Shown here: in pieces, positions 33,743 to 53,704 of the stretch | Numbering within the stretch: the stretch's first letter is position 1 | Layout: the number at the start of each line of letters is the position of its first letter | Assembly: GCA_047610985.1 (NCBI GenBank) | Contig: JBLFWU010000009.1 | Span: forward strand, 12,607-76,606 | Length of the DNA stretch: 64,000 nucleotides | Reading direction: 5' to 3' | Origin: Nitrospinales bacterium | Lineage (GTDB): Bacteria > Nitrospinota > Nitrospinia > Nitrospinales > VA-1 | Position numbers and translations under genes: made by a program | Notes under the pieces: model-generated | Told to the model about the DNA's origin: nothing | What the model saw: only the letters and a program-made list of their open reading frames with translations | Databases searched by the model: none

Positions 33743-33744
33743 TT

Positions 33745-34449: not shown

Positions 34450-34461
34450 ACCTACACCGAT

Positions 34462-36769: not shown

Positions 36770-36790
36770 TTGATCAGGAGAACCGAGCCA

Positions 36791-38167
36791 TCATGCAATC
36801 AATTCGGCGAAAAAATTCTTATCCATTTCCGTGGATAAATGACTGTTATGCCACAGCAAGGTAAAATCACCTCCGTACGCCAAAGACTTTTGTTTTAGTG
36901 ACAGTATTAAGTTCATCGCTTTATCACTGTAGCCGAGTCCCATATAACGATCTGCCAAAACTGAGCATTCCATCAGCACGAGAGGCCGTTGTTTTAAAGT
37001 TAATGGTTTCATTTTTTTCCAACTCCACATCGTAAATGGACGTGAGGTTCCATAACGAAATCCAGGTCGGTCTGCAAACGCGCCTGTTGTATCGTATTCG
37101 TAACCCGATGCATCGATATGGTCAGGGGTCTGAGACACATCCCATCTTAAATAGTGCTGTCGGTTTCCTTTTGCGCTTGCGTTTATTCCCAGCTTATCAC
37201 ACGTATCAATAAGTCTTTGCCGCTCACTTTCTAGTTGTCTCCTGTCCTGATAGCTATTGAAGCTGGCATGCGTACCAATCTCATGGCCACGATCAGCAAT
37301 TCGATGCATCAAGTCTTGTATTCTTGGTTCAGAAATTTTGTAACATCCATCCATTATTTTCGAGGAATGATCAACGATGAAATAGAAAGCAGCCTGATGT
37401 CCAAATCTCTCACAAGTATCCATATACCAGTCAAAAGTATTGAACGGATCATATTTAAAATTGCCGCGCTGAGTCGAAACATAATTTTGAAAACGCTGAC
37501 GAGCCAATCCAACGTTACGCCTTTTGAAAACATCAACCGCTAATCCTTTAGCCAGTCTCAGAGAGGTCTTAGTCGAACAGTCATAAGGAGCATCAACGTC
37601 ACAACTGATCCTTAATTTTCCTTGACGTGCTTTCCGTTCTAACGCAGGCCACAGATGCTTCATGCATGCCCATAGAGTTTCTACATATTCATCTACAATG
37701 GGCCTTTCAAGCAATCCTGATCTACACGCAAGTGAGGCGGTTGCAGGGAAGCGGTCATATTTATCACGTTCTTTTATAACCATCTCTTCATATCGAGAAA
37801 GGAAGTAAAACGCCGTTCCAAAGATATCGATATGACAATCAATCCGATTTGATTCAACATCTATTTTTGGCGAACCAAACACAACTGGTAGCAATGGGTC
37901 TGTCAACGAAACAGACAAACCAGACTTTGATGCATCCCATGTAGCAAGAGGAGTTTTCATCATGGGTTCTTTAATAAGCCAACTTCCCTGTAACTGGGGG
38001 AACAAGCTATCGGAAAGGTCAAGTCGCTTGCCATTCAACTGTAAGAAATACCCCTTTCCTATGTTGGGTCGAGAAATATATTCAATGCCAAGGAATTCTC
38101 CGAATATAACGGACAATATCCAATCAACAGCTTCACTCTGGATTTTAGGGTGATGTATTTCCAGCAA
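36791..38167 (-). CDS. polysaccharide deacetylase-like (CE4-type) protein with an N-terminal extension
   Basis: 458 aa. SCDVDAPYD (TFDD-like motif 1), GHEIGTHASF (CE4 motif 2), and WHNSHL near the C-terminus. Confidence 0.55.
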   Translation of the reverse strand: MLEIHHPKIQSEAVDWILSVIFGEFLGIEYISRPNIGKGYFLQLNGKRLDLSDSLFPQLQGSWLIKEPMMKTPLATWDASKSGLSVSLTDPLLPVVFGSPKIDVESNRIDCHIDIFGTAFYFLSRYEEMVIKERDKYDRFPATASLACRSGLLERPIVDEYVETLWACMKHLWPALERKARQGKLRISCDVDAPYDCSTKTSLRLAKGLAVDVFKRRNVGLARQRFQNYVSTQRGNFKYDPFNTFDWYMDTCERFGHQAAFYFIVDHSSKIMDGCYKISEPRIQDLMHRIADRGHEIGTHASFNSYQDRRQLESERQRLIDTCDKLGINASAKGNRQHYLRWDVSQTPDHIDASGYEYDTTGAFADRPGFRYGTSRPFTMWSWKKMKPLTLKQRPLVLMECSVLADRYMGLGYSDKAMNLILSLKQKSLAYGGDFTLLWHNSHLSTEMDKNFFAELIA

Positions 38168-38191
38168 TTTAAAACTCGTTTAGGAAAAGGT

Positions 38192-39121
38192 TTAAGACTT
38201 CTTTCGCAAAACCACATGGATACCATATTCATGAGGTACAGGTGGGTTAGTCAAAGCATAATATAATGTTAAAAAATAGCGCTTAATCTTTGTCCAAAAA
38301 GAGGGAAGCCTGTAATTTTCCACATCGAATAATCGAGTAACCGGTGATGATCCTAAATATGCCAACATACGAATATAGCCACTGGTCAATCTCCCCGCTG
38401 TTAAAACGTTGACTTCAACTTCTGCCAAACTGGAAAACTCTTTTTGCCAAAATTCAGGATGAAAAAGATTAACAAGGTCAGGCGGTGGAGTGTTCAACCA
38501 TATTCGCCCTAAAAAGTCACAACTCATTCTATTTGGCGCATTGAAAACAAGTATCCCACCTGGCTTGAGCAAACCAACCAGCTCTTTTGTCATTTCAACA
38601 GGTGAAGCCACACAGCCAATTGTGCCAACGTGATAAATCACATCGTATGGCGCTTCCACCTTAATTCTTGTATCATCAGGAAGACAAAAATGATCTCCAA
38701 AACTTTTAATCGCAGCCGCGACAGCTGTGGGAGAAATATCCACACCCAACACATTCCGGTCATTAGCTAAAAACCAAGCCGCCAGATAGCCCTGGGAACA
38801 ACCAATTTCAAGAAACTTACGCGCGTTGGGCAATGCATCCACCGTTTCAATAATAAAAGAGTTGGCGAGCTTTTTAGCTAATAACGATTTTGCGTTAACA
38901 ACATCGCCGTTACTCAGCAAATCAGCTATCTGTTTTTTTATATTTTCTTGATAAAGATACTTGGTGGATTGACTGTGAAGTTTCTCATGCGCATTTACAT
39001 CATGAGGTGCAAACCGTGAAAGACAGGCATCACAATCAAAAACATCTACGCCATAATCCAAATAAGGGCGGTAGTTGCTCACGAGCTTTGTGTTGGATGC
39101 GCCACATACCTGACATTCCAT
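38192..39121 (-). CDS. class I SAM-dependent methyltransferase with an N-terminal Zn-ribbon
   Basis: 309 aa. CQVCG...CDAC ribbon, SAM motif I FLEIGCSQGYLA, post-I DVIYHVG. Confidence 0.8.
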   Translation of the reverse strand: MECQVCGASNTKLVSNYRPYLDYGVDVFDCDACLSRFAPHDVNAHEKLHSQSTKYLYQENIKKQIADLLSNGDVVNAKSLLAKKLANSFIIETVDALPNARKFLEIGCSQGYLAAWFLANDRNVLGVDISPTAVAAAIKSFGDHFCLPDDTRIKVEAPYDVIYHVGTIGCVASPVEMTKELVGLLKPGGILVFNAPNRMSCDFLGRIWLNTPPPDLVNLFHPEFWQKEFSSLAEVEVNVLTAGRLTSGYIRMLAYLGSSPVTRLFDVENYRLPSFWTKIKRYFLTLYYALTNPPVPHEYGIHVVLRKKS

Positions 39122-39124
39122 ATT

Positions 39125-40345
39125 TTACCCCTTAAGCAACTTGCAGAATAGTCTGGCGTTTTCTACGGACTGCTCACTGACTTCATTTTGATATTTTTTG
39201 ATCATCACGCCTAATTGATCTTTATGCGTATTAATTTTTTCAAGCATTCTTGCAATAACCTCGCTACTGCTATTTTCTTCAAGCACATATTCTTCCATTC
39301 CATAACAGCGCATTAAATCTCGATATTTGGAGTGCCATGATATTGAAATAGCTGGCACACATGATGACAGTGCCGCAACTACACTGTGATATCTTGCTCC
39401 CACATGAAACTCGACATTAGAAATAATTGATTTTAGCTCTTTCGGAGATAAATTTTCGTCAACGATCATTACATTGAGGTCAGAGGTTGCACTCACCACA
39501 AGTCTAGCAACTGCAAGGTCGCACACACGGGGATCAAGCTGAGCAGGGCGATACGTATGAGGAATCAGAAACACTGAATAATCCATGCTTACCAAAATCC
39601 TAACGACAGACAATAACTGAGTAATGTGTTGATTTTCTCCATTTATCATTCCAGCTCGCGAGTACAACACCGCACTGGGTGACAAACTAACGACAGGTCG
39701 CATTGCAGAATATTTTTCAGAAAGATATGTCGCGCCCCATTCTTTGTCAAAAGGTAAAGTTACCGCTACATCTGGAAAGCTTATGGCATCTGCTTCAGGT
39801 AACAGTTTTCTAACCTCATCCCGGCAATCATTTCCACGACAAAATATTTTATTTTGCCGTCGCAAATCTAGTCGAGCAAAAAATCTTACATATTTAGTAG
39901 AGAAAGGGCCATAGCTTTGTGTCCATGCAAACATTGAACGACATGCCAGCTTGGAAATAAAAAAATCTTGAACACGAGTTGACCCAATCATAGATAAAAA
40001 GGTACCCGGCCCTGATGGTGGGCCTGTGTAACAAATGGCTGACATTTGTATCAAGGCATCACACCCTTTTAAAGTAGACCACCATATTTTAAGTTGCTGA
40101 AATCGCCCAGAAGCAAAACAAAACGGTGGCACAATATTATGGAGGCTGATATTTTTTACGATCTCCACACCATACTTCTCAGCCCACTCCTGTTCATAAG
40201 GCCATTCTTTATTATCTCCGGGAACTGAAAAAACAAATTCCGCATCAGGAACATACTGCCGTAGCCGACTCATCAAAGACAAAGCCAATGCGGGTCCACC
40301 CTTGTTGCCCTGCATGCAAAGACCTGACACAAAATAACGAGACAT
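39125..40345 (-). CDS. polysaccharide pyruvyl transferase family protein
   Basis: 406 aa. VGARYHSVVAALSSCVPAISISWHSKY resembles the conserved RxH...P.i.i.Y..K block of PS_pyruv_trans. Confidence 0.6.
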   Translation of the reverse strand: MSRYFVSGLCMQGNKGGPALALSLMSRLRQYVPDAEFVFSVPGDNKEWPYEQEWAEKYGVEIVKNISLHNIVPPFCFASGRFQQLKIWWSTLKGCDALIQMSAICYTGPPSGPGTFLSMIGSTRVQDFFISKLACRSMFAWTQSYGPFSTKYVRFFARLDLRRQNKIFCRGNDCRDEVRKLLPEADAISFPDVAVTLPFDKEWGATYLSEKYSAMRPVVSLSPSAVLYSRAGMINGENQHITQLLSVVRILVSMDYSVFLIPHTYRPAQLDPRVCDLAVARLVVSATSDLNVMIVDENLSPKELKSIISNVEFHVGARYHSVVAALSSCVPAISISWHSKYRDLMRCYGMEEYVLEENSSSEVIARMLEKINTHKDQLGVMIKKYQNEVSEQSVENARLFCKLLKG

Positions 40346-40348
40346 GAA

Positions 40349-41686
40349 TTACTTTCTCAGAGAAATAATATCGCGCAAAAGATGCAATAGTAGCAAAGGA
40401 TGTCTCGCCACCGTTAAAGCCCGATACAACTTAAAATGTTTTTTACGGACAACCCCTCTAAAAAAAGTTTCAACATTAAATCGCAAACGATCTAAGAACG
40501 AAACCGAAACAAAATCATCAGAATCATTAAATTTATACTGCGGTGAAGTATTTCCGTCTTCTCTTAACTGCTGATTTATTTTTCTGGCAATGGTATCAAA
40601 AACAAGGTTTCTACTTTGACTTTCGATCAAATCTTCAAACGATGAAGGTTCCAGATTAATCTGGCCCGAATTCTCCAGCTCCCGCACCATATTTTCACCG
40701 ACACTTGTGCGAGCAACCACCACACTGATCTTTTTTGTGCTCGTTTTACCGAGCCACGCATCCCCAACAGCAACATCTGCCAACATATTTAAATGATCTT
40801 CACAACCTCGACATCGAAGTCGATTGTAATCTGTAGAAAAACTTGAGCGGTAGTCTATGCGTTCTTGCGCTGACTTAAAGTCTCGCCTATCAAATAACAA
40901 CTCCTTATCCTGTGTTATCAGCTTCAATTTCCCAACCCGGTCCCCTCCTCTGTATCGAGCATCCACAATCGGTTCCGATATCTTTTTGTATTTAGCAAAA
41001 GCAGAAAGTGAATGATGACTGAACATCCAGCCGCATATTAACCCGGCTATGACTTCAATATTTTTAGATAGGTTTTTCTCGTATGTAGAAATATATTGAA
41101 GAATCCCTGCCAACTGACATGGAATAGCGACGAGCATTACAGGTCTCTCTGCCATACGAATCAGATCAATGGCACCTGCAAAGCTGGTAGAGTGATAAAT
41201 GGAGCCTGGAACGAACTTCAAATCTTCTATATGGGTTAAAAGTCTAGGTTTTAACTTGTCATCAACGGGATCTATGGCAAGGCATACTACAGGCCTATTC
41301 AATTTAAGTGAATTCGCCACCATTGCCCGTAAAATGCCGCCCGAACTTGAAACCCCATCATCTCTGTAATTCGCAGACCACCCAAGCTGGACAGAGCGAA
41401 CCCATCCATCACGTGACGGGTTTGAATCATCTGGGTCACCACGATTGATCATGGCCCTTGCTTTAACAAAATCTATTGAAATACTTGGGCACACATTATC
41501 GCAAGGCTTATCACATCCATCACAGCACTCTGGCGCAACAATCTCTGCTTCAAAAGCACCGTGTAAGCTATTGAATGTAGACCGAACATTATCTGGAGGA
41601 CAAGCCGATATACAAGCCCCGCAAGCTATACATTGATCATCTGCGATTACGCGACTTATTAAAGGCGCAGTTATTTTTTCAGACAT
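40349..41686 (-). CDS. FrhB-like (coenzyme F420 hydrogenase/dehydrogenase beta-subunit family) Fe-S flavoprotein
   Basis: 445 aa. Two ferredoxin-type Cys clusters (CIACGACISACP; CDGCDKPCDNVCP), SSSGGILRAM and VAIPCQLAGIL blocks typical of the FrhB N/C domains. Confidence 0.7.
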   Translation of the reverse strand: MSEKITAPLISRVIADDQCIACGACISACPPDNVRSTFNSLHGAFEAEIVAPECCDGCDKPCDNVCPSISIDFVKARAMINRGDPDDSNPSRDGWVRSVQLGWSANYRDDGVSSSGGILRAMVANSLKLNRPVVCLAIDPVDDKLKPRLLTHIEDLKFVPGSIYHSTSFAGAIDLIRMAERPVMLVAIPCQLAGILQYISTYEKNLSKNIEVIAGLICGWMFSHHSLSAFAKYKKISEPIVDARYRGGDRVGKLKLITQDKELLFDRRDFKSAQERIDYRSSFSTDYNRLRCRGCEDHLNMLADVAVGDAWLGKTSTKKISVVVARTSVGENMVRELENSGQINLEPSSFEDLIESQSRNLVFDTIARKINQQLREDGNTSPQYKFNDSDDFVSVSFLDRLRFNVETFFRGVVRKKHFKLYRALTVARHPLLLLHLLRDIISLRK

Positions 41687-42912
41687 ATCAAATTCAAGTA
41701 AAATAAGATTCCATAACTAACAAGAAATACAAGTGACAAATAAAAAATCAATACATGAAGTTCTCCACCCGCTTTAGAAAAAAGGATAATCAGCAATATT
41801 GTTACGACCAGCTTTATTGCATCTAAGTAAAATTTCCATATTTGCTTTTTGTGGACAATCAGGTGAGTTAAAGGTTGAACAATAATCATCCCGACTAGCA
41901 TCGGAGCCAGAGCCATAAGAATATCTCCAGCACCAGCCCACTGAGCCTCACCAAGAACCGGCCCTACGAATAAAGGCCCAGACACACATAATAACACTAC
42001 GGGAATCGCAGCTAAGATTAATAACTTTGTAGATTTGAGAAATAAACTCTTAAGCTTTACAATGTCTGTTTTTACCAGTTGAGCCGCTTCAGCCCAAAAA
42101 CTTTGGCTCAAGGCACTTGTCAATAATCCAATGGGTGTGATAGCCAATCGATACATCAATGCATACCAACCTACTTCTTTGGCACTGTAATACTGGACAA
42201 GCAACAGAGGAATAGCAGCCAGGCTTGCAACATTAACAACAGCAACCATTGTCGATGAAGTAGACTCCCACCAATATCGGGCTATACCCACTTTGATTCG
42301 ATTCAAAGAAAGTCTGGCAAATGAACGTTTCAAATTTTGAGCACCGCTAACCAATAGCCCCATACCCACCCACACCGAGATCACAGAACTTCCAATTAAT
42401 CCCCAGGCTCCTAGCCCAGTATATCCTCCAACTATATTTAGCCCCGTTCCCGTAAAACTCTGCGTAATTCGTACAGACGCTACTTTTGACAATTCTGCCT
42501 GACGCACATACCAACAATGCATGAGTTCATGAAGACCACCACCTAGAATTATCACCGGAAGAAATAATAATAGAGGACCAAGCACATCAAACCCTTTCCA
42601 AAAAGTCCACTGCTCAGCCCAATTCCAAAGAACAAAAAATGTAGCGACTGAAAAAAACAATAATGCAACGATCCCAAATAGCAACAGCACCGCTGCTAAA
42701 GTTTTGGATGAAGTGTTTGGAACAGACCAGTCAAAACGCCAGGATGAAAATGCAAGTAAGAGACTGACCGCAGCAGAGAAAAGAGCCAAGGCACCAAAAT
42801 CTTCAGGAGTATATAAACGTGCCAACAAAGGCGCAGCCAATAGAGGCAATAACTGAGCCAACATATTTGCCTTCGCTATCTTAAAAAAATTTGAGCGGAA
42901 CCGAGTGTCCAT
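41671..42912 (-). CDS. oligosaccharide flippase (Wzx/MOP-family polysaccharide biosynthesis protein)
   Basis: 413 aa with about 12 predicted TM helices. N-terminus ...LLARLYTPEDFGALALF is typical of the family. 16-nt overlap with the next gene. Confidence 0.7.
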   Translation of the reverse strand: MDTRFRSNFFKIAKANMLAQLLPLLAAPLLARLYTPEDFGALALFSAAVSLLLAFSSWRFDWSVPNTSSKTLAAVLLLFGIVALLFFSVATFFVLWNWAEQWTFWKGFDVLGPLLLFLPVIILGGGLHELMHCWYVRQAELSKVASVRITQSFTGTGLNIVGGYTGLGAWGLIGSSVISVWVGMGLLVSGAQNLKRSFARLSLNRIKVGIARYWWESTSSTMVAVVNVASLAAIPLLLVQYYSAKEVGWYALMYRLAITPIGLLTSALSQSFWAEAAQLVKTDIVKLKSLFLKSTKLLILAAIPVVLLCVSGPLFVGPVLGEAQWAGAGDILMALAPMLVGMIIVQPLTHLIVHKKQIWKFYLDAIKLVVTILLIILFSKAGGELHVLIFYLSLVFLVSYGILFYLNLICLKK

Positions 42913-43002
42913 ATCTATACAAAAATCGATTTCAAGGAGTTGGAACCTTACGGTTTCCAGGAAGGAGGTCGATTATAAACAGACCTGTCTTGCAAATAAT
43001 TT

Positions 43003-43719
43003 TTAAGAAGATTCCCAAGATTCTTTAACAATTTTCCAGCGATCCCCTTCATTTTTCCAAATGAGAACCTTCTTGCCGATATCAGAAATTCGATCTGACT
43101 TATAGTTCTGGGTAAAAGACATCTCCACCGCATCATCTGCGCGAAGGATTTGAATATCACTGACTTCAATCGAAACGCCAGAACTACTGCCAAACGCTTT
43201 TCGGCGTTGAGCTTCCCAGTTTTCTTGGGGTCTTTTAGAATCTTTAAAATCCTTCGAATAAAAGGATAGGTAGGAGTTTATTTTTTGAGCTTCCCAAGCT
43301 TTAAGCCAAATTAAAAACTGAGAGACCACGACATCTACCGAATCAATCGGTTCCTCTAAATCGGGAGGCATCTCATCGGAAACTAAAGCGATAGCGGTTA
43401 TTCCCTGTGCATTTTTTAGATCCAGCACCACTTGATCGGCCTCTTCCTTAGAGGGGTAGGGCCCTACACGAGTTTTATACCATTCGGACTCCTCGTCGCT
43501 TACTATAAAGGGAGTGTAGCCCTTCTTCTTAATTTTGTTTATAAAGTCCTGAGCATTTTCCTGTTTTTTAAAGGAACCCAGTTGCACAACCCAGCCATTA
43601 TCGATCGTGTTAGCAAATGCGATTCCAAAAGATAAAAACCACCCTATCAGAAACAACACAAACATTCTTTTGCAGAAATTTTTAATTTTCGATGGGCCTG
43701 GAACGGGAGTCATGAACAC
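43003..43719 (-). CDS. SPOR-domain protein with a C-terminal NTF2/SnoaL-like domain
   Basis: 238 aa. SPOR: WVVQLGSFKKQENAQDFINKIKKKGYTPFIV...YKTRVGPYPSKEEADQV. The C-terminus resembles a Cds6/DUF4440-type NTF2 fold. Confidence 0.7.
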   Translation of the reverse strand: MFMTPVPGPSKIKNFCKRMFVLFLIGWFLSFGIAFANTIDNGWVVQLGSFKKQENAQDFINKIKKKGYTPFIVSDEESEWYKTRVGPYPSKEEADQVVLDLKNAQGITAIALVSDEMPPDLEEPIDSVDVVVSQFLIWLKAWEAQKINSYLSFYSKDFKDSKRPQENWEAQRRKAFGSSSGVSIEVSDIQILRADDAVEMSFTQNYKSDRISDIGKKVLIWKNEGDRWKIVKESWESS

Positions 43720-43740: not shown

Positions 43741-44226
43741 TTAAAGCATCTTTTTCAAATACGGTACCAACTGGTCAGCGCTAACACCGGGTGCCCGGGC
43801 ACTGAGAATACCCTCTTTATCAATGATCAGCACTGTTGGCATTTCTCTTTGAAAATAGTTCTGATAAAAAGATTTAACGGGATCCAGCAAATAAGGAAAA
43901 CGGACCTTCTCAGGAAACTTGGAAAGATAATCAGCAACCGCTTCTTTTGAGTCACCATTGGTATTTATTCCAACAATAGCCAACTGCTCCTCATTGAGCT
44001 GATCACGCACCTTGTTAAATTCCATCGCTTGATTCATGCAGGGAACACAGATATGGAACATGCCTATCAATACTACTTTGCCCTTCATATCGGAGAGCGA
44101 TATCTGCTTGCCATCCAAGGTTTTTAATGAAAAATCCGGAGCCTTGTCGCCAGGGCCAGGAGCACCTGCAAATGCAAGTTCAGCCATAAATACCAATAAA
44201 AAGACTAGCGGCAATACTTTTCGCAT
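43741..44226 (-). CDS. periplasmic thioredoxin-like protein (TlpA/redoxin family)
   Basis: Start set at MRKVLPLVFLLVFMAELAFA (signal peptide); the track start is 44271. CxxC motif FHICVPCMNQ in a redoxin fold. Confidence 0.8.
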   Translation of the reverse strand: MRKVLPLVFLLVFMAELAFAGAPGPGDKAPDFSLKTLDGKQISLSDMKGKVVLIGMFHICVPCMNQAMEFNKVRDQLNEEQLAIVGINTNGDSKEAVADYLSKFPEKVRFPYLLDPVKSFYQNYFQREMPTVLIIDKEGILSARAPGVSADQLVPYLKKML

Positions 44227-44661
44227 TTTTAGCACGACAAACTCCAATTGAGGGAATATTTCAAGAAACAAAAAGGTCTAACAAAAGCTGGGTTTCATTT
44301 AATACTATATTTTAGATCAATGGGGAGAAATTTAAAAGTAATATGATTTTTGTATGGATAAACATACGAGCAATATTAACTTGTTAAAATTAAGATTCAA
44401 ATTCGAAAAACTAGCATTAATTTGTAGCCAAACTCATCCTTGACTTGGCCTTGAATTTATAATAAAAAAAGGAGTAACCCTTTTATTCTACAGGGGTTTT
44501 ACAAGAAAGCTCAGGCTGGATTTCTGTCTAGGGCCTTTTTCGGCAAAGACCTCCTAAGCCATTATTTTATGAAGGTTTAGGGTTATTCATGGATTGAAAG
44601 ACAAAATATATATATTTTTCAAATTGCTCCCCCAACGCGCTAACAATTGAGGCTCTTAAGA

Positions 44662-45510
44662 ATGAAAAAAAATCTATGGCTTGCCGCATCAGTATTTTCA
44701 ATATTTTCCATTGCAATAAATGCATGGGCTTATCAGGAAATAGAAGTAAATAACGGGGGAACAATAAAGGGCAAAACCACCTTAATTGGAAAGATGCCCT
44801 TTCCACGAATTTATCACCTTATTCTATTTCCGAATATTGATATGTGTGCCGAGGTAGATACCGATGATGAGATGAACCGAGTTCTTGATGATTTTAAAGT
44901 TTCTGCCGATGGCGGATTCAAAGATGTGGTTATCACTCTGAAACATGTAGAAGCTGGTAAGCCGTTTAATAAAGAGCCTATTATGATTACTTCGGAAAAC
45001 TGTAAATTTCTTCCTGATGTCAATATCATTCGTCAAGATGAGGAGTTTAAGGTCGACAATCTGGATGCAGTTATGCATAACAGTCAGGTCTACCAGAAAG
45101 AAAGAGGAAAGATTCTTTTAAATATCCCGATCCCTGCAGAAGAAGTTTCTAATGGTAAGATACACTTCAAAAAACACTATAAAATAATGCAGATGATCTG
45201 CGGTATGCACGAGTTCATGCAATCATGGGGTTACCGCGTACAAAATCCTTATTACGCGCAAACTCCCATTGACGGAAATTTCATCATAGAGAATATCCCT
45301 CCGGGAGAATATGAAGTGACGGCTTGGCATTATTTAATGAAAAGACAAACCCGAAAAATTATAGTCGCAACCGGGAAAACCATTGATTTGAACTTTGAAT
45401 TCGATGCCGACAAAGTAGTACGCCCTTTCTATGAAACTATAAAATCTGGAAGAATCAAAAAAGATGCTGTTATCCCTGGAACCGCAAAAGGTAAAGAAAT
45501 GGGGCGGTAA
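44662..45510 (+). CDS. secreted cupredoxin-like/Ig-like protein (paralog 2 of 3)
   Basis: Start at MKKNLWLAAS (GAGG 9 nt upstream); the track start is 44647. Signal peptide. Conserved blocks GTIKG, DMCAE, ENCKF, DAVMHNSQVY, ICGMHEFM (C-x2-H-x2-M), NPYYAQTPIDGNFIIENIPPGEYEVTAWH. Confidence 0.7.
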   Translation: MKKNLWLAASVFSIFSIAINAWAYQEIEVNNGGTIKGKTTLIGKMPFPRIYHLILFPNIDMCAEVDTDDEMNRVLDDFKVSADGGFKDVVITLKHVEAGKPFNKEPIMITSENCKFLPDVNIIRQDEEFKVDNLDAVMHNSQVYQKERGKILLNIPIPAEEVSNGKIHFKKHYKIMQMICGMHEFMQSWGYRVQNPYYAQTPIDGNFIIENIPPGEYEVTAWHYLMKRQTRKIIVATGKTIDLNFEFDADKVVRPFYETIKSGRIKKDAVIPGTAKGKEMGR

Positions 45511-47418
45511 TTGACAGCACAACCCAAATCTCGACTCCACTCTGGTTTGTATTTGCTTGTAGCCGTTTTCCTTCTGGCTACCCCGTATACAACTTGGGGT
45601 TTTTCTGCGCCGACCTCTAAAGACACACCAGAGGCCATCACCCTTGACAACAAAAAAGTCTTATTAAAAGACTTGAAGAACCCCCTCCCCTCCAGCCCAG
45701 AGATTGTCAAAGAAGGCGGAGAAATTTACATCAAAAACTGTTTCCTCTGCCACGGCGACCTATTGGATGGAAAAGGAATTTTTGGCGAGAGTTTTTTTCC
45801 CTCGCCAGCCAGCTTTATCCAAAAAGACTCTGTTGTTTCTAAAACTCCTGCTTATGCATTCTGGAGAATAATGAAAGGCGGGAAAGGACTACCAAAAATA
45901 TTCGCACCCTGGAACTCCGCGATGCCTTCATGGGAAGGTGTTTTAACTGAAGTAGAAGTTTGGAAAACGATTCACTACATAAACGAAACAGTAAAAGAGC
46001 GCAGCCAAGCTCCCTCAAAAAACCATGAGCCGTCTTTAAAACGTGGCAAACAAATCTATTTAAAAAAATGTGCCTTCTGCCACGGAGAAAAAGGCAAAGG
46101 CGATGGTCCCTCTGCAGAATACAGCTTGCCACAACCTAGGAACCTGACCAAAGGGCATATCAAGATTCGCTCAACCTCATTTGGCAAGATACCTACTGAC
46201 AAAGACCTGTTTAATGCCATCACTCATGGAATGCGCGGAACCACCATGCCCGGTTGGAAACATCTCTCGGAAAGCGATAGACAAAGTCTGGTTATCTACA
46301 TCAAGTCATTATCGAAAAAATTTGAGAAGTTCCAGAAGCGCGGCAAAAAACATAAGATCGTAAACGTCCCAAAACCTCCTACATTTTCTTTGGAAGGTGT
46401 GAAGCGCGGCAAAAAATCCTTTATGATAAATTGTTCAGGTTGTCATGGAGTTAAAGGCAGGGGCGATGGAGTTACCACCACTCGCATTGTAGACTATTCA
46501 TCGAATGCCATCTGGCCAAGAAACCTCAGTGAACCATGGAACTTTCGAAGAGGCGCAACTCGAGAAGATGTCTTCTTAACATTACGGACCGGGCTTTCAA
46601 CCACCGCAATGCCAAAGTTTTCTCCACGGGTGTTCAAAGACAAGGAAATCTGGGACATCGTAGATTTCATTTGTACTCTTGGCTCACCCAAGAAGCGGCA
46701 AGTAAAACCCGTGATCCTGGCTATGAAAGTCAACGGGCCTTTATCTATCGACCTCAATGCTTCATTTTGGAAAAAAACGCAATCATTTAACATCCCATTA
46801 GGTGGACAGATTTTACAAAAGCCAAAATCCTATTTTCCAACAGTAAAAAACTTGACGATTCGAGCCGCCTACAATGATAAAGAAATCGCTTTCAATATTA
46901 AGTGGGACGACCCTTCTTATGATCCCGCTCTTCTAGAAAGAAATAAGGTTGAGGCATCGCCGACGCCACCATTGCCGGATCATTTAAAGGGGGGAAAAGA
47001 GGAAAAAGCTATTGAACCTGTGATTCCAGAATTCCCAGATGCTTTTGCACTGCAGTTTCCCGTTAATCTGGACACTCAAAAACCCTACTTCCTAAATGGT
47101 GACCCTGAGCACCCAGTAAACTTATGGAAGTGGACTTCATCAGATAATAAAGTTCTTGAATGGAATGCTACCGGATTAAAAAAATGGTCGCTACAAGACG
47201 ACCTGAGTCAGGTAGTTAAGGCTCAAGCAAATTATAAGTTTGGTAGATACTCTTTAGTAGTAAAGCGCAAACGAAGGGTCATCCACGAAAAAATAGACAT
47301 CCAATTCCAAGCGGGAAAACCTATCCCTATTGCTTTCAATATCTGGGATGGTTACCAAGGTGAAACAGATACTAAAAAATCAATTTCAAGTTGGTTTGAA
47401 TTGCAATTCGCTGAGTAA
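45511..47418 (+). CDS. trihaem c-type cytochrome fused to a C-terminal EB_dh/DOMON-like (putative haem-b-binding) domain
   Basis: 635 aa. TTG start directly after the upstream TAA. Signal peptide. CFLCH (45739-45753), CAFCH (46069-46083), CSGCH (46432-46446). The C-terminal ~230 aa carry NLTIRAAYNDKEIAFNIKWDD, FPDAFALQFPV and VNLWKW blocks resembling the ethylbenzene-dehydrogenase gamma-subunit family. Confidence 0.75.
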   Translation: MTAQPKSRLHSGLYLLVAVFLLATPYTTWGFSAPTSKDTPEAITLDNKKVLLKDLKNPLPSSPEIVKEGGEIYIKNCFLCHGDLLDGKGIFGESFFPSPASFIQKDSVVSKTPAYAFWRIMKGGKGLPKIFAPWNSAMPSWEGVLTEVEVWKTIHYINETVKERSQAPSKNHEPSLKRGKQIYLKKCAFCHGEKGKGDGPSAEYSLPQPRNLTKGHIKIRSTSFGKIPTDKDLFNAITHGMRGTTMPGWKHLSESDRQSLVIYIKSLSKKFEKFQKRGKKHKIVNVPKPPTFSLEGVKRGKKSFMINCSGCHGVKGRGDGVTTTRIVDYSSNAIWPRNLSEPWNFRRGATREDVFLTLRTGLSTTAMPKFSPRVFKDKEIWDIVDFICTLGSPKKRQVKPVILAMKVNGPLSIDLNASFWKKTQSFNIPLGGQILQKPKSYFPTVKNLTIRAAYNDKEIAFNIKWDDPSYDPALLERNKVEASPTPPLPDHLKGGKEEKAIEPVIPEFPDAFALQFPVNLDTQKPYFLNGDPEHPVNLWKWTSSDNKVLEWNATGLKKWSLQDDLSQVVKAQANYKFGRYSLVVKRKRRVIHEKIDIQFQAGKPIPIAFNIWDGYQGETDTKKSISSWFELQFAE

Positions 47419-47696
47419 CAGATAATCTCACCCCAGCATCGACTTCTTATTACATCATCGCGCCATCAACTTGATGCCAGCGTAGTATTTTTAGGTTTGT
47501 ATTAAACGGGGCTATCAATACGTTCCATTTAATCCTTCAGCACGTCATCGTGAACGACCGGAGGGAGTGCGGCGAACCAGACGCAATCGTACTCCACTTT
47601 ATTTTTGGTAGAGGCAGACCCTAATTTGTTCTGAGATTGTCCGAACTCTATCCCTGAGGAGGGTAAATTTTAGGGATGGGGTCACCCGCATCAGGC

Positions 47697-47737
47697 AAAA
47701 AAAAAGCAGCACCGGAACCGAAGTTCCGGTGCTGCTT
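47697..47737 (-). terminator. rho-independent terminator of the cupredoxin-like gene at 47752-48558
   Basis: On the minus strand: GCAGCACCGGAAC-TTCG-GTTCCGGTGCTGC (13-bp perfect stem, UUCG loop) followed by T9. Confidence 0.9.
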
Positions 47738-47751
47738 GATTGAAACGCTTT

Positions 47752-48558
47752 TTACTTAGCTGCCAGGGTGAAGTCAGCTTTAGCTGCACCAGCAGCCACT
47801 GTTACTTCCTGGGTTGATTCACCTACATAAGGCTGCCATGCGGTAACTTTATATTTACCAGCAGGAACGCCGTCAATTGTGAAAGCACCATCAGCTCCCG
47901 TAATTGCGTAGTAAGGGTTCCAAACAATGCGTGCATCGGCTTCCATGAAGTTATGCTGATCGCACTGCAAAAAGAAATGCTTATCTTTGCTAGACTTTAG
48001 ACGACCGATATTTTTGGACACTTCCGCAACATCACCCTCATTTGGAAGAGGCTTGTTGAACAATGTTTTACGACTTGCACCAACAACGGAATACCCATGT
48101 GGGTTATGCAAAATATTTGCATCGTTATTCTTTACGGTAAGAACTCCACCCGATTTCTTTTCAGCCTTGGTAGGCTTGCGAATAACCAACATTTTCTGAA
48201 CAATGTCGCATTTCGTGAAATCGTAAGCAGCTTTACCAGCATCACCCCAAGGCTTGCCACCGTCAATCTTTTCGATAAATACGACTGCGTCTTTCAGCTT
48301 GCCGCCAGCAGCTGACACTTTTACACGAGGGCGGATTCCATCTTTAGCATCCGGATGCGTGGTGCAGAACTCAACGTTCTTACCTTTTGATAAATCTTCC
48401 ATGATCGGAGCCATCGCAGCACCCTTTAACATGACTGTTCCAGTAATGCTACCCGCACCTGCTGTGCCTTCTGCATAACCTTTTTTCTTGGCGAAACTCG
48501 TAGAAGCTAGTGCCAATGAAAAGGCAACAACCATTACACTAAATACAATCTTTCTCAT
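47752..48558 (-). CDS. secreted cupredoxin-like/Ig-like protein (paralog 3 of 3)
   Basis: 268 aa with a signal peptide (LALASTSFA). AGGAGG RBS. Blocks SITGT, VEFCTT, FTKCD, ANILHNPHGY, LQCDQHNFM (C-x2-H-x2-M), NPYYAITGADGAFTIDGVPAGKYKVTAWQ. It has its own terminator. Confidence 0.75.
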   Translation of the reverse strand: MRKIVFSVMVVAFSLALASTSFAKKKGYAEGTAGAGSITGTVMLKGAAMAPIMEDLSKGKNVEFCTTHPDAKDGIRPRVKVSAAGGKLKDAVVFIEKIDGGKPWGDAGKAAYDFTKCDIVQKMLVIRKPTKAEKKSGGVLTVKNNDANILHNPHGYSVVGASRKTLFNKPLPNEGDVAEVSKNIGRLKSSKDKHFFLQCDQHNFMEADARIVWNPYYAITGADGAFTIDGVPAGKYKVTAWQPYVGESTQEVTVAAGAAKADFTLAAK

Positions 48559-48691: not shown

Positions 48692-48730
48692 AAAAAAGGG
48701 GCCCCATCAAGGGGCCCCTTTCACTTTTTT
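48692..48730. terminator. bidirectional rho-independent terminator downstream of the giant multicopper oxidase gene
   Basis: AAAGGGGCCCC-atcaa-GGGGCCCCTTT hairpin flanked by A6 upstream and T6 downstream, so it has a U-tract on both strands. Confidence 0.85.
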
Positions 48731-48754: not shown

Positions 48755-51700
48755 TTATCTCATCGAGAGCCGGTCATCCTCAGCTTTTGAGGCAGATTTC
48801 TCTTCCTCAGAAGGCTGAGATGCAGTTTTCACACCCTTTGGTGTAACCTTGCCAAGCGGCAGGATAGAACGGTCACCTGAAGATAGAACCTTAAAGTAAC
48901 CCCACTGACCCGCTTGTTGATAAGGTGTACGAGCGTTAAACCACAAGTACGTACCAGGGTTCTTGTACGTGCCGCCAGCATTGAAGAAGGCTTGAATGTA
49001 CTCGCCTGCTCCAAATTGCTCGGTGTCAATCATATCAGAGCCTTCCTGATCCATATGACGCCTCCACTGATGGCCATCCAAATTGAACATCTGGTTTTGT
49101 TCGTTATGAGCACCAAAAATATTGATCATAACCCTATCTCCTGCATGGGCTTTCAGAGTCGGTGTTGCAGGATCTTGATCTGCAGCAACACAAGCTGTGA
49201 ACATGTTACCAAGTTCACAACCCTCGTCTTCCCGATAGAGCCAAGGCTCCAGGCGATAGTTAACCCCTGTCAGGCCCGCTACGTTTTGCAGGTAAGGCAT
49301 GAAAGATGTACCAATGATATTGTCTTCATCCTGGAAATACAGTGCAAAATCCCTGTAGTTCTCAATGTTAGCGTTTTCAGGATAAGACTTGTCGATGATA
49401 ACGTCCGCTTTCCAAGAATTACCGAGAGAAATATCTTTCCCGGTTTCAGGATCGCGATACACCGAACCACGTGGGCCGATGATGATACCACCGAACATAC
49501 CATCGCGTAAGTTGGTCGTCAGGTTACCAAAGTCCCAAATCAATGAACCATTGATTTTGAAACCTGGATCTGCGTAGAACTCGTAGTTCTTCGATTTACC
49601 CGGAGCCACCGTCTGGTCGCCTGGGTTATTCCCAACGTTGATACCCTGAGAAGTCAGAGGATCAAACGCAATGTTGTTAAGATGCATTGAAGCATTGCCC
49701 GCTTTCAAGCGATTGGTCAATTTGATTTTGATACAATCGCCAATGTTGGCGTGCAAGGTCAACGGATGCGGCATATGCCCATCTGCTGCGGCTTGCTTGG
49801 CTTCACCTTCGAGAGCATAGATTTTGCCCGCTGCATTAGCGAGTAATAACTTACGCTCAAAGTCGACCTCGATTTCACCTTCGGTATTGGCGTTGAAGTT
49901 CAACTCTTTATCAATCGCTACAACACTGAAGCTTTTAACCGGTGAGCCTTTCGGACAAAGAACTTTCTTAACTTTTTTCTTAAATTCTTCATTACCCGGA
50001 AGCACTTTCAGGTCTTTTTGCAATTCATCGTGTACACGGATGATGCCCCACTCTCCTTCTGACAACTTTGAAGTTCTGCCGTCGTAGTAGAGATAGTCAC
50101 CTGCCATGCCCTGATAACCACCAGCAGTGGTTGCCAAGTCATAACGTTCCGCAATACCAATATGAATCGTATTGGTAACACGTGAATCTTTGTCGTAACG
50201 CTCAGGGCGGTAGCCATGACCGGATACAACAAAGGTGTGTGTTTCATTTTGCATACCATGAAGGAGACGGAAAACAATATTGTCTCCTACATAAGCACGT
50301 AACATTGGTGTTGCAGGCTCTCCGTGCACTTTACTATCGAACAACCTGGACGCGTCTTTATTATTCAAAAGACGTGAAGCCAAGGAAGCAGCACGGAAGT
50401 TGAACCCACCGCCGGTTGTATGCGTTCCGCCATTGAGATGCGGGAAAGCAACTTCCAGCATATCCGAAGGCATCTGGAAAGAAATCGACTGACCGGCAGC
50501 AATCGCGTTTTCACGTGTCAGCCCCGCTGGATTTCCTGCTGTAACCAGCTGTGCCGTATGAGGAACAGTGTCATGTAACTGCGCAACAAGTTCGCGGAAG
50601 CTACCATTTCGGCTATATGCGAAAGGTTCGGTTCCATGAATATCGGCAACTGGACCACTGCGGATCTCCTCACCGGTTTGCGGGTCATGATAAGTAGAAC
50701 CCCAAGGCTCAACAATAGTAGATCCGATTCCGCCATGCGGCCAGGTGGTCGCACCAAACGCATGATCGTGCCAGAAAACCAATCCAACATCTGCATCTAC
50801 CCACCATCGGTAACGCACATACTCGGTGGTTATAATCTGGTTAGCTGCATGAGCATGAGTCATACCCTCACTAAAGGTGATGGTGTACTTACCATCTTTA
50901 GCTTCACCTTTGTTTGGGTCAGGTGTGATGTTAGTGATCCAGCGCGCGTCTTTACCGTTAGGAACTTCGACACCAACAATGATATCAGCTCCAACATGGT
51001 AAGTCGGCGAACCTTTAGCCATTTGAAGCTCGACCTTCGTGTCGCCTGGCTTCGTCGCCTTCAACAACTTGGCGTTCATCGGCATCGGCATACTGACATG
51101 ATGACCGTCTTTCATCTTCTTAGTGAACTGCGTGTAAGACCTCATGGACTGGTCATATGAGAAACCAGTGATAACTCCATCTGAAGCCTGATTGTCGAAC
51201 TGGAAGAAATGCGGATGGATATTCACCTTAGACATTTGGAAGTTGGTGAAATCATCATCATCCCACTCACTGGTCAACAACACATCAACACAGTCATAAA
51301 CGTTGGCACGAATGACCAGAGGAATAGCCCTTTTAGGATCAGCTTTAACCTCAGCCATCTCTTCATCGATCACATAGATCAAGCCATACTTATCCACTAC
51401 AGGTGGCGTCTTGCCCACCGCCGGTGAAAGCTCAATCGGAGTGTTGATAAAATGTAGATTGTATTGTTTACGTCCTGCTCCTGGAGGACAAAGGCTCCAT
51501 CGCCCCTGCTCACCTGGTTTTGCAGGTGCACTGCTTTCAACATTGATTCCAGATCGACCACTACCAGATTCGGAACCTGTAATGATGTCTGCATCCGGTC
51601 TCATATGGAAAGGCTCCAACCAAGGAGCTCCACCATGGTGTCGAGCAAATGGAACACGCTTACCAAAATGCGGATTCAAATGCGGCCATGCAAGTTTACC

Positions 51701-53704
51701 GTGTTGATCAAACATGATCGGATGTCTCTTGCCTGGATGTGGAGATTTATACTTAGGCCATTCAATTATAGATTCTCGTTCAGAGAGTACCTGATTGCCT
51801 TTCCAGTCGTAATCCCATACAGAGCCATCATAGGCCTTAATCTGTTTGATTGGATCATCATAATGACCAGGCTGTCCCTTTGGAGGAAGCATGTACTTAA
51901 CCCAGTCTTTGATGTTAACGGTTGGATCCTCTTTCGACCAATCGCTTTTACCTTTATCAACAATATGAAACTTCTTGCCAAACCAGTCCATGGTTCTACC
52001 AACCAGTTTGTCTGAAGTTTGTCCATGAGGAATGCGTCCCACACGATCAGGAAGCTCCTTCAATGGACGCATAACATCGGTACTACCTGTTGGATAATTA
52101 CCGTCCTGTAGAACGTTATAAACTCTCCAATATCCCCACATGCCTGCAACATAGTGATGCGCTACATGACAATGGAAAAGAAAGTCACCTGCTAAACGCT
52201 GACAAAGACCAGACCCACATTCAGTCTCGAGATCCACAACTTCAGATGGACCAATAACTTTAACGTCAACACGGTCGGTCGTAGTACGAACAACAGGGTA
52301 CTTGACGGGACCATCATAAGCCGCACTGATGAGGTTGGCGATTTGCACTTCCCGTTTCGGGGAACGCGTCCAACGAATGGTTCCACCATGTGGATGATGT
52401 GAATGAAACACTTCACCACCACCATGAATCAAACGGAATTTTGCAGGATCACCCAGATAAGAACGGGGAATCGTGGTCGGTGCATCTCCGAAAGTATAAG
52501 AACTATATGCCAGTGACTCATCTTCAAAATGAAACTTCTTTTCCTGAATTGCCAGATTGTTGATACCAAATGGTTCAGAACGAAAGTTCAATGCTCTTGC
52601 AGAAGGACGATAAGCGTCTGTCTGCGGATCGCGCTGAGGAATCATTTCACCATGACGATTCAAGGGACGAAAAGATTCGTCACCGACTTCGTGATAAATC
52701 AAACCAAATTCACGAAAATCTCTTTCATCATCATTAACGATCATGGCCATCCAGCCGCTTTCCAGCGGGCCACCGGTCCATGGATCGACATAACGAGAAC
52801 CTTTAGGCTCTACAACCATCGCGCCGATCAAACCGAGAGAAGAAGGATCACGACCTGCATGGTTTTGAATCATGTGTCCGCCTTCTTGCTCATCAATAGG
52901 AATGTACCACTCGTATTCCTGCGTTTCACCAGCAGGAACTATTGCACCAGGTGTAGCAGCCGTATCAGGCTGACCTGTAGAGCTGATGATCATTGCAGAA
53001 CCGTTTACCTGAAAGCCTGCATCTTCATCTTCTAATTGGTTCGTGAATTTAATACGTAAGCAGTCGCCTTGATTCGCACGAATCATAAACGGTTGAATAG
53101 CATCTCCCTGAAGTCCGTTAGAAACGGCACCAGGGTCCAACGCGTCTTCACGAGCTGCTGCATTCTTTTCTTCTTCAGCTCGAACTTTATCAATGTCCTT
53201 ATCCAGAACATACATATAGCCCGGATAGTAATCGCCCCATTGGTTCAGGGTGATTTCGACGTTAATAGCTGAGACTTCGTAGGTTTTTGTAGAGGCGTTG
53301 CTCGGACAATGTGCACCTCTGTATACCTTGGCCGCAGCTTCTGTCGGTCCAAGCAAATAACTTTGACCTAATTGATGTCCCGCCCAGGAATCGTGGAATC
53401 CGCCGCCTGAAGATGCGGGACTCGCGTGTTCCTTAAGCTTTGATTTTAACTGATCCATAACCTTCATAAAGGTTTGGTCCAGTTTTTCTTGGCTACCTTC
53501 CAGCCCACTCATAACATCTTCATGCTCGAGTTGCTGATCAAGTTTTTTCAGCCAATTGGGTCTGTCAACTGCTGCGTTGCCAGAGTCATGACCGTCATGC
53601 GAATGGTCGGTCGAAATTGCACTAGCGGGAACAGAAAGTCCCAGGGTCAAAAAAACGACCGCAAGCGCATACAAGCTTTTCCACCCTTTTTTGACACGAA
53701 TCAT
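48755..53704 (-). CDS. giant secreted multicopper oxidase, six cupredoxin-like domains
   Basis: 1649 aa, AGGAGG RBS, Sec signal peptide (…SVPASA), His-rich mature N-terminus STDHSHDGHD. Type-1/trinuclear signature FHCHVAHHYVAGM (aa 510-522, nt 52139-52177) preceded by FHSHHPHG (aa 433-440). NIHPHF (aa 828-833) and FWHDHA (aa 977-982) lie downstream. Internal repeats include IRANQGDCLRIKFTN / LHANIGDCIKIKLTN and LHGMQNETHTFVVSGHGYR / FGAHNEQNQMFNLDGHQWR. Confidence 0.85.
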   Translation of the reverse strand: MIRVKKGWKSLYALAVVFLTLGLSVPASAISTDHSHDGHDSGNAAVDRPNWLKKLDQQLEHEDVMSGLEGSQEKLDQTFMKVMDQLKSKLKEHASPASSGGGFHDSWAGHQLGQSYLLGPTEAAAKVYRGAHCPSNASTKTYEVSAINVEITLNQWGDYYPGYMYVLDKDIDKVRAEEEKNAAAREDALDPGAVSNGLQGDAIQPFMIRANQGDCLRIKFTNQLEDEDAGFQVNGSAMIISSTGQPDTAATPGAIVPAGETQEYEWYIPIDEQEGGHMIQNHAGRDPSSLGLIGAMVVEPKGSRYVDPWTGGPLESGWMAMIVNDDERDFREFGLIYHEVGDESFRPLNRHGEMIPQRDPQTDAYRPSARALNFRSEPFGINNLAIQEKKFHFEDESLAYSSYTFGDAPTTIPRSYLGDPAKFRLIHGGGEVFHSHHPHGGTIRWTRSPKREVQIANLISAAYDGPVKYPVVRTTTDRVDVKVIGPSEVVDLETECGSGLCQRLAGDFLFHCHVAHHYVAGMWGYWRVYNVLQDGNYPTGSTDVMRPLKELPDRVGRIPHGQTSDKLVGRTMDWFGKKFHIVDKGKSDWSKEDPTVNIKDWVKYMLPPKGQPGHYDDPIKQIKAYDGSVWDYDWKGNQVLSERESIIEWPKYKSPHPGKRHPIMFDQHGKLAWPHLNPHFGKRVPFARHHGGAPWLEPFHMRPDADIITGSESGSGRSGINVESSAPAKPGEQGRWSLCPPGAGRKQYNLHFINTPIELSPAVGKTPPVVDKYGLIYVIDEEMAEVKADPKRAIPLVIRANVYDCVDVLLTSEWDDDDFTNFQMSKVNIHPHFFQFDNQASDGVITGFSYDQSMRSYTQFTKKMKDGHHVSMPMPMNAKLLKATKPGDTKVELQMAKGSPTYHVGADIIVGVEVPNGKDARWITNITPDPNKGEAKDGKYTITFSEGMTHAHAANQIITTEYVRYRWWVDADVGLVFWHDHAFGATTWPHGGIGSTIVEPWGSTYHDPQTGEEIRSGPVADIHGTEPFAYSRNGSFRELVAQLHDTVPHTAQLVTAGNPAGLTRENAIAAGQSISFQMPSDMLEVAFPHLNGGTHTTGGGFNFRAASLASRLLNNKDASRLFDSKVHGEPATPMLRAYVGDNIVFRLLHGMQNETHTFVVSGHGYRPERYDKDSRVTNTIHIGIAERYDLATTAGGYQGMAGDYLYYDGRTSKLSEGEWGIIRVHDELQKDLKVLPGNEEFKKKVKKVLCPKGSPVKSFSVVAIDKELNFNANTEGEIEVDFERKLLLANAAGKIYALEGEAKQAAADGHMPHPLTLHANIGDCIKIKLTNRLKAGNASMHLNNIAFDPLTSQGINVGNNPGDQTVAPGKSKNYEFYADPGFKINGSLIWDFGNLTTNLRDGMFGGIIIGPRGSVYRDPETGKDISLGNSWKADVIIDKSYPENANIENYRDFALYFQDEDNIIGTSFMPYLQNVAGLTGVNYRLEPWLYREDEGCELGNMFTACVAADQDPATPTLKAHAGDRVMINIFGAHNEQNQMFNLDGHQWRRHMDQEGSDMIDTEQFGAGEYIQAFFNAGGTYKNPGTYLWFNARTPYQQAGQWGYFKVLSSGDRSILPLGKVTPKGVKTASQPSEEEKSASKAEDDRLSMR

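Follow-up and report, generated by a model that had tools for sequence, protein, structure and literature searches.

The window analysed here, 64,000 nucleotides (nt) of contig JBLFWU010000009.1 from a Nitrospinales bacterium, encodes a multicopper oxidase (MCO) of 1649 amino acids (aa) whose copper-ligand motifs follow an order that departs from that of three-domain laccases. Is this a newly permuted enzyme, where in the chain do its copper sites lie, and what does it oxidise? The open reading frame (ORF) is real and lies on the minus strand, which a first-pass annotation made from the letters alone had left unstated:

48755..53704, minus strand, stop codon included: coding sequence of the 1649-aa six-domain MCO, very probably of the MnxG type (ORF list, translation, ATG start)

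Our analysis strongly favours a periplasmic MnxG-type six-domain MCO, with respect to both enzyme class and copper topology. Its copper-motif layout is already published as the norm for bacterial six-domain MCOs, and the Nitrospina family to which it belongs is already in the literature.

Each oxidase chain carries one complete ligand set, HxxHxH, HCHxxxHxxxxM, HxH and WHxH, and HCH occurs once in all 1649 residues. The four motifs, L1 to L4, appear along the chain in this order:

52385..52408, minus strand: L3 motif FHSHHPHG, aa 433–440 (HxxHxH; H434 type-1, H437 and H439 trinuclear)
52139..52174, minus strand: L4 motif HCHVAHHYVAGM, aa 511–522 (H511 and H513 trinuclear; C512 and H517 type-1; M522 axial)
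51206..51223, minus strand: L1 motif NIHPHF, aa 828–833 (H830, H832)
50759..50776, minus strand: L2 motif FWHDHA, aa 977–982 (H979, H981)

The sole HCH-bearing type-1 set (H434, C512, H517 and M522) sits in domain 2 (D2), and the equivalents in D4 and D6 are gone. Pfam detects only a weak Cu-oxidase_2 stretch at the HCH motif (aa 505–528). The sequence and the family alignment divide the trinuclear histidines between D2 (H437, H439, H511 and H513) and D3 (H830, H832, H979 and H981), so that half of them share a domain with the type-1 site, as the first-pass annotation had placed them. The order L3-L4-L1-L2 arises because D2 precedes D3 in the chain. All the peptides quoted in that annotation, including the four motifs, the patch HHVSMPMPMNAK, the N-terminal STDHSHDGHD and the four peptides offered as internal duplicates, are found at the residues given for them.

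To assess conservation, two ortholog alignments from Nitrospinota and Nitrospirota at 55–98% identity were used, one of 16 sequences (query plus 15) and one of 66 (query plus 65). H434, H437, H439, H511, C512, H513, H517, M522, H830, H832, H979 and H981 are invariant in both. A D2-D3 query was then compared with 1.84 billion cluster representatives, which gives the MnxG-type family a size of 1065 clusters (50% identity) at E<1e-3, 213 of them at E<1e-30. Of 68 long and diverse homologues (27–80% identity), 67 have the full set of 12 ligands in the order L3-L4-L1-L2. The L3 motif is kept in 68–69 of the 69 sequences of the family alignment, and the axial Met is replaced by Phe in 8 of the 68 long representatives. 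Because the 12 residues are invariant in orthologs and present in nearly every distant long homologue, the ligand set is not a product of chance. The ortholog search that had been proposed as a check thus finds both the ligands and their order conserved. The first-pass annotation had taken the order for an unusual permutation, a claim that does not stand: its yardstick was the three-domain laccase, and the same order is both family-wide and published for bacterial six-domain MCOs.

The chain divides into six cupredoxin domains of two alternating types, as defined by hhalign, a profile-profile comparison of ortholog sub-alignments carried out domain by domain:

52730..53302, minus strand: D1, aa ~135–325, odd-type cupredoxin (hhalign; aligns to MnxG domain 1)
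52085..52729, minus strand: D2, aa ~326–540, even-type cupredoxin (hhalign; aligns to MnxG ~190–378, including L3 and L4)
50615..51520, minus strand: D3, aa ~729–1030, odd-type cupredoxin (hhalign; family alignment)
49985..50374, minus strand: D4, aa ~1111–1240, even-type (hhalign; aligns to MnxG 682–817)
49415..49957, minus strand: D5, aa ~1250–1430, odd-type (hhalign; best Pfam Cu-oxidase_3 stretch, 1296–1412)
48869..49414, minus strand: D6, aa ~1431–1612, even-type (hhalign)

Within the odd class, the hhalign probabilities are 99.5% for D1 and D5, 98.3% for D3 and D5 and 98.1% for D1 and D3; within the even class, they are 98.6% for D4 and D6, 97.9% for D2 and D4 and 94% for D2 and D6. These classes, together with the single HCH, agree with the earlier reading of six domains and one complete ligand set, and the D1/D5 and D4/D6 probabilities confirm the internal duplications that had been noticed by eye. 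BLASTP self-comparison of the oxidase detects no internal repeats, and the profile-profile comparison is needed to reveal them. Pfam Cu-oxidase_3 matches the chain in three stretches. The segments 541–728 and 1031–1110 resemble none of the six domains by hhalign. As judged from these sequence profiles, the oxidase repeats a two-domain cupredoxin unit three times, (D1-D2)(D3-D4)(D5-D6). Circular permutation is ruled out, given that D1-D2 is colinear with MnxG and the motif order is family-wide.

The ligand positions of the four remaining domains are degenerate. In D1, hhalign places Q-V-N at L1 and Q-N-H at L2, where H281 is the single histidine left. D4 keeps only H1156, at the first type-1 His position, and has Y-D-G in place of HCH and no Cys. 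D5 has H-L-N at L1 and W-D-F at L2, where the aligned MnxG domain 3 has HIH and FFHDH. D6 contains no copper ligands and has W-F-N in place of HCH.

Two elements lengthen the copper-bearing half of the chain:

51521..52084, minus strand: D2-D3 linker, ~190 aa (aa 541–728), non-cupredoxin, conserved in orthologs
50810..51142, minus strand: D3 insert, ~100 aa (aa ~855–965), between L1 and L2 (hhalign gap relative to D1 and D5)

The linker is highly conserved in orthologs, with many invariant residues such as H614, H679, H690 and H700, and within the family L4 and L1 lie between 170 and 1052 aa apart. The D3 insert, which no Pfam family covers, carries the conserved G-[ML]-P-x-P-M-N-A, in which P873, P875, M876 and N877 are invariant in orthologs; H903 and H952 are also invariant. 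The 12-residue patch HHVSMPMPMNAK (aa 868–879) lies in this insert and holds just three Met, and its 'HHV' part is restricted to Nitrospinae in the ortholog alignment. The insert is predicted to be an independent beta-rich subdomain, and its strands (model residues ~750–840) have block-mean predicted local distance difference test (pLDDT) values of 74–94 over most of its length in the AlphaFold model. The L1-L2 spacing of about 150 aa that had been singled out is accurate (149 aa) and is not peculiar to this protein. Most relatives with at least 40% identity have 115–177 aa, which makes the insert a subfamily trait, and the most distant, Bacillus-like members have 45–46 aa. Five family representatives were considered as candidate Pseudomonas-type MnxG proteins for comparison of the insert, and all five score below the NCBIfam cutoff.

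Sequence and fold firmly support kinship to the large Mn(II)-oxidising MCOs, a point that the first-pass annotation could not settle by eye. A phmmer search of the Protein Data Bank (PDB) finds a single strong match (E=2e-98), chain 9bxa_A, the MnxG of the Mnx complex from Bacillus. The oxidase is colinear over residues 142–555 with MnxG 5–378, and HxxHxH and HCH...GM match residue for residue; the Ala opposite H517 is explained by the deposited chain, which is the H340A type-1 mutant. The AlphaFold model, which was built from the alignment of 66 sequences and spans residues 130–1240 (D1-D4), has a pLDDT of 74.6 and a predicted TM-score (pTM) of 0.75. A Foldseek search of the PDB with this model again places 9bxa_A at the top (E=3.7e-50, TM-score over the query (TMq) 0.53), followed by ceruloplasmin (E~1e-16) and then by factors V/VIII.

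The orthologs extend the same picture. Full-length orthologs of 1620–1658 aa share 71–98% identity in Nitrospinaceae/Nitrospinota and 55–62% in Nitrospirota, where they include the Mn-lithotroph Candidatus Manganitrophus. The 1634-aa ortholog of Nitrospina gracilis 3/211 (P0047) is 78% identical over 98% of the query. Databases label this protein family 'manganese oxidase'. The N. gracilis protein was described as a periplasmic multicopper protein similar to MnxG of Bacillus SG-1 and conserved in Nitrospira defluvii, with a speculation on Mn(III)-mediated defence against reactive oxygen species (Lucker et al. 2013, PMC3578206). In a Pacific metaproteome study (PNAS 2022, PMC9477243), 'MnxG' is the second most abundant Nitrospinae oxidoreductase and reaches its maximum in the cline of the oxygen-deficient zone; its function is given as unconfirmed. 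Yu and Leadbetter reported two 'novel MCOs' in all Manganitrophaceae.

Several observations weigh against the MnxG-type reading. The identity to Bacillus MnxG is only ~20%, and the pLDDT of the model falls below 50 exactly at all four copper loops. The NCBIfam equivalog model for MnxG (NF041487, Pseudomonas type) matches the oxidase in six stretches and scores 109.3 bits against a curated cutoff of 3100, so that it cannot be taken as functionally equivalent to a proven Mn oxidase. MnxE/MnxF-like genes are not adjacent to the oxidase, which is flanked by HtrA and by a 268-aa cupredoxin fusion; this statement covers the flanks only, and no search for MnxE/MnxF extended over the remainder of the window. 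The 268-aa neighbour has no PDB sequence match and therefore none to the Mnx chains in 9bxa. Mn oxidation has never been shown in Nitrospinaceae, and MCOs are substrate-promiscuous (2025 study).

The periplasmic location is consistent with the N-terminus of the protein. The gene has an AGGAGG ribosome-binding site ~7 nt 5' of its ATG, and the first residues form a signal peptide in which no twin-arginine motif is found by translation:

53618..53704, minus strand: Sec-type signal peptide, aa 1–29 (MIRVKKGWKSLYALAVVFLTLGLSVPASA), with a putative cleavage site (translation)
53585..53614, minus strand: His-rich mature N-terminus STDHSHDGHD, aa 31–40 (translation)
48695..48721, no strand given: GC-rich hairpin AAAGGGGCCCC-loop-GGGGCCCCTTT with T-runs (sequence, pattern scan)

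Among orthologs, the His-rich N-terminus is only loosely kept, as DHxH. The hairpin lies 34 nt past the stop codon of the oxidase gene and is terminator-like, as far as its sequence suggests a function.

The gene 3' of the oxidase bears directly on the question of the electron donor:

47752..48558, minus strand: 268-aa secreted cupredoxin-CarboxypepD_reg fusion (Pfam, alignments, AlphaFold, Foldseek)
L001 15091–15903, L003 14985–15914, L004 15027–15965, L006 11018–11590: partner homologues at related loci, directly 3' of the oxidase

Pfam recognises only the C-terminal CarboxypepD_reg beta-sandwich of the 268-aa protein and leaves its N-terminal part unannotated. H151, C199, H202 and M205, which have the amicyanin spacing H...C-x2-H-x2-M, are invariant in 60 sequences, as are C65 and C117. 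The AlphaFold model has a pLDDT of 90.7, and Foldseek returns amicyanin at the top (probability 1.0, TM-score over the target (TMt) 0.57), with NirK cupredoxin domains and other cupredoxins among the further fold matches. The model and the alignment indicate that the N-terminal part is an amicyanin-like type-1 (blue) cupredoxin with a putative copper site. A haem-c site at the CDQH of this protein is ruled out, since it has no CxxCH. The protein is probably one of the 'cupredoxin-like copper-binding proteins' of Lucker 2013. The partner gene is directly 3' of the oxidase in N. gracilis, Candidatus Manganitrophus and two Nitrospirota metagenome-assembled genomes (MAGs). It is not universal to the family, as no cupredoxin gene lies next to the distant relative P0124. 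The gene of another distant oxidase, P0122 (42–48% identity), is followed by that of a 587-aa protein (L007 5357–7120), which has an N-terminal H...CFIHPYM and no Pfam match.

Further redox genes lie beyond the partner:

45511..47418, plus strand: 635-aa periplasmic tri-haem cytochrome c with a type-II DMSO-reductase gamma (NxrC/EbdC-like) haem-b domain (Pfam, TIGR03477, three CxxCH)
44647..45510, plus strand: 287-aa paralogue of the cupredoxin fusion, with C-G-M-H-E-F-M (Pfam, alignment)
43741–44271, minus strand: TlpA/ResA-like thiol-disulfide oxidoreductase with a weak SCO1/SenC match (domain scans)

The 635-aa cytochrome matches the soluble 'alternative NxrC' of N. gracilis (Lucker 2013), and its start codon abuts the stop codon of the 287-aa paralogue; N. 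gracilis has three paralogues of the cupredoxin fusion in the region. N. gracilis and one Nitrospirota MAG also have the TlpA/ResA-like gene close to the cluster; its product could serve copper-site or cytochrome maturation. Synteny with N. gracilis extends to both sides of the oxidase, with HtrA, PAPS reductase, CbiQ, HD, SIR2, Lcl_C and SelO on one side and the cupredoxin fusion, the alternative NxrC, the paralogue of the fusion and the TlpA-like gene on the other. In N. gracilis, a gene for a 424-aa tri-haem cytochrome c lies between those of the partner and the alternative NxrC. The window has no counterpart of it, the only tblastn matches being paralogous ones within the 635-aa gene, and a 333-nt intergenic gap (47419–47751) takes its place.

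Two Nitrospirota loci, from Candidatus Manganitrophus and one MAG, have genes for a CopD/DUF4149-like membrane protein of 150 aa and a hemerythrin beside the oxidase-partner pair, and sigma-54 activators upstream (L003, L004). All three are missing from the Nitrospina-type locus of the window.

L003 9248–9700 and 16028–16594; L004 17159–17611 and 17709–18281: CopD/DUF4149-like and hemerythrin genes

Next to the redox cluster of the window, a long co-directional run of cell-envelope and polysaccharide genes occupies 30517–43719 on the minus strand. The six genes scanned at 36.8–43.7 kb encode a Polysacc_synt_3 flippase, a pyruvyl transferase, an FrhB/FdhB-like protein, a methyltransferase, a DUF7033 protein and a SPOR-domain protein; a LolA-like protein is encoded at 30.5–31.3 kb.

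From the ligand pattern and the canonical MCO mechanism, copper occupancy and the electron path can be proposed as follows. The donor would give one electron at a time to the single D2 type-1 copper, held by H434, C512, H517 and axial M522. The electron would pass through the H511-C512-H513 triad to a trinuclear cluster bound by H437, H439, H511 and H513 of D2 and H830, H832, H979 and H981 of D3, where the four-electron reduction of O2 would yield two waters. The D2/D3 interface would be the only one of three equivalent inter-unit interfaces (D6/D1, D2/D3 and D4/D5) that still holds copper, and D1, D4, D5 and D6 would act as copper-free scaffolds with vestiges of ligands. With respect to the substrate, homology to Bacillus MnxG makes Mn(II) the most likely single candidate for the physiological donor, with Mn(III)/Mn(IV) as the product, an assignment that we make tentatively.

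A protein may instead feed the same copper sites, with the adjacent amicyanin-like cupredoxin fusion and the NxrC-like cytochrome c encoded close by as candidates. In that case, the oxidase would be a periplasmic, non-pumping outlet for O2 reduction, for O2 scavenging or as a redox-overflow valve, wired to the carriers of nitrite oxidoreductase (NXR). The partner gene that directly follows the oxidase in Nitrospina, Candidatus Manganitrophus and Nitrospirota MAGs points this way, as do nine further oxidase/partner pairs on contigs of equal size, and the partner combines the invariant H/C/H/M with a confident cupredoxin model and amicyanin as its top fold matches. After the gene of the distant oxidase P0122 comes that of another, different protein, one that bears the cupredoxin motif CFIHPYM. 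The gene cluster falls within the NXR-associated carrier set of Lucker 2013, and Nitrospinae MnxG co-varies with NxrA in the oxygen-deficient zone (PMC9477243). However, adjacency is not interaction, a terminator-like hairpin separates the two genes in the window, P0124 does without a cupredoxin neighbour, and periplasmic O2 reduction yields no conserved energy; we consider a protein donor unlikely. Less probable still is a role in metal homeostasis, as a Cu(I) or Fe(II) oxidase similar to CueO or ceruloplasmin, in which Met/His segments would deliver the metal to the type-1 site. The conserved G-[ML]-P-x-P-M-N-A of the D3 insert, the His-rich N-terminus, the CopD/DUF4149-like gene near Nitrospirota orthologs, the TlpA/SCO1-like thiol-disulfide oxidoreductase nearby and the position of ceruloplasmin as next-best fold match are consistent with such a role. 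Yet three Met are few compared with the extended Met-rich segment of CueO-like enzymes, the HHV is confined to Nitrospinae, the N-terminal His run is poorly conserved, and the closest characterised relative acts on Mn(II) rather than on Cu(I) or Fe(II).

Two further explanations concern the protein itself and are effectively excluded, because the ligands are invariant and the motif order is family-wide. A truly permuted novel MCO, with the trinuclear cluster at an unprecedented position, would account for an order that does differ from that of three-domain laccases; the same order in almost all representatives, its publication for bacterial six-domain MCOs and Fox1 (PMC3600357), and the colinearity of the D1-D2 region that holds L3 and L4 with the solved MnxG leave this a negligible chance. 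A copper-depleted, non-catalytic scaffold such as coagulation factors V and VIII, which are among the fold matches, would fit the four of six domains that lack ligand sets, but strict invariance of 12 ligands in two phyla is expected only under copper-binding selection, and we give this reading as little credence. Finally, the MnxG-type oxidase and the adjacent amicyanin-like fusion might together form a dedicated two-component module in Nitrospinota and Nitrospirota, a copper-only periplasmic O2-reducing branch instead of a plain Mn oxidase, which would draw electrons from an NXR-linked protein carrier, or from Mn(II) in Candidatus Manganitrophus, with the clade-specific D3 insert and its P-x-P-M-N as docking or metal-entry site; this proposal is speculative and, in our estimate, improbable.

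The motif arrangement in itself adds nothing new, and the remaining interest is ecological and lies in the substrate and the conserved cupredoxin neighbour. Should Mn(II) prove to be the substrate, oceanic Mn(III) and Mn oxides would have a large hidden source in the main marine nitrite oxidisers. If the cupredoxin neighbour is oxidised instead, the oxidase would represent a new kind of respiratory side branch.

Among known systems, MnxG of Bacillus sp. PL-12/SG-1 (PDB 9bxa), a Mn(II)/Mn(III) oxidase, has the same layout: six domains, a single type-1 site in D2, and motifs that run from L3 and L4 of D2 to L1 and L2 of D3. In contrast to the 1227-aa Bacillus protein, the oxidase of the window has 1649 aa, an additional N-terminal ~130 aa, an L4-L1 distance of 318 rather than about 190 aa and an L1-L2 distance of 149 rather than about 46–48 aa. 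It is Sec-exported and periplasmic, whereas Bacillus MnxG belongs to the spore exosporium, and its gene adjoins that of the amicyanin-like fusion instead of MnxE/MnxF-like genes. The MnxG of the Pseudomonas putida GB-1 type (NF041487), likewise a large six-domain MCO from bacteria, belongs to the same superfamily; the oxidase is not an equivalog of it. The 'putative multicopper oxidase' of N. gracilis 3/211, the Nitrospinae 'MnxG' of the Pacific metaproteomes, is an ortholog with the same flanking genes.

The triplicated six-domain architecture is shared with ceruloplasmin and hephaestin, the eukaryotic ferroxidases. In ceruloplasmin, the cluster lies at D1/D6 and type-1 sites are found in D2, D4 and D6, whereas the oxidase has its ligands in D2 and D3 and a type-1 site in D2 only. 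The residues that a ceruloplasmin-type layout would need are missing: where ligands would be expected, D1 shows Q-V-N and Q-N-H and D6 shows W-F-N, and D4 lacks the Cys. The six-domain ferroxidases of Chlamydomonas (Fox1) and Dunaliella resemble the oxidase in having trinuclear ligands in D2 and D3; they are eukaryotic and have more type-1 sites (Vasin 2013), and are set beside it here by description only. SLAC-type two-domain laccases, which give weak sequence and fold matches to the oxidase, represent the ancestral two-domain unit with an inter-unit trinuclear cluster. They assemble separate chains into a homotrimer with three clusters, whereas the oxidase is one chain with one surviving cluster. 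Domain positions are not discussed by Romano 2017. In the analysis of Vasin et al. 2013 (PMC3600357), every bacterial six-domain multicopper protein included, like algal Fox1, has its trinuclear histidines in domains 2 and 3, its only mononuclear site in domain 2 and vestigial ligands elsewhere. The authors trace this arrangement to an ancestor that had clusters at D1/D6, D2/D3 and D4/D5, from which the three were differentially lost.

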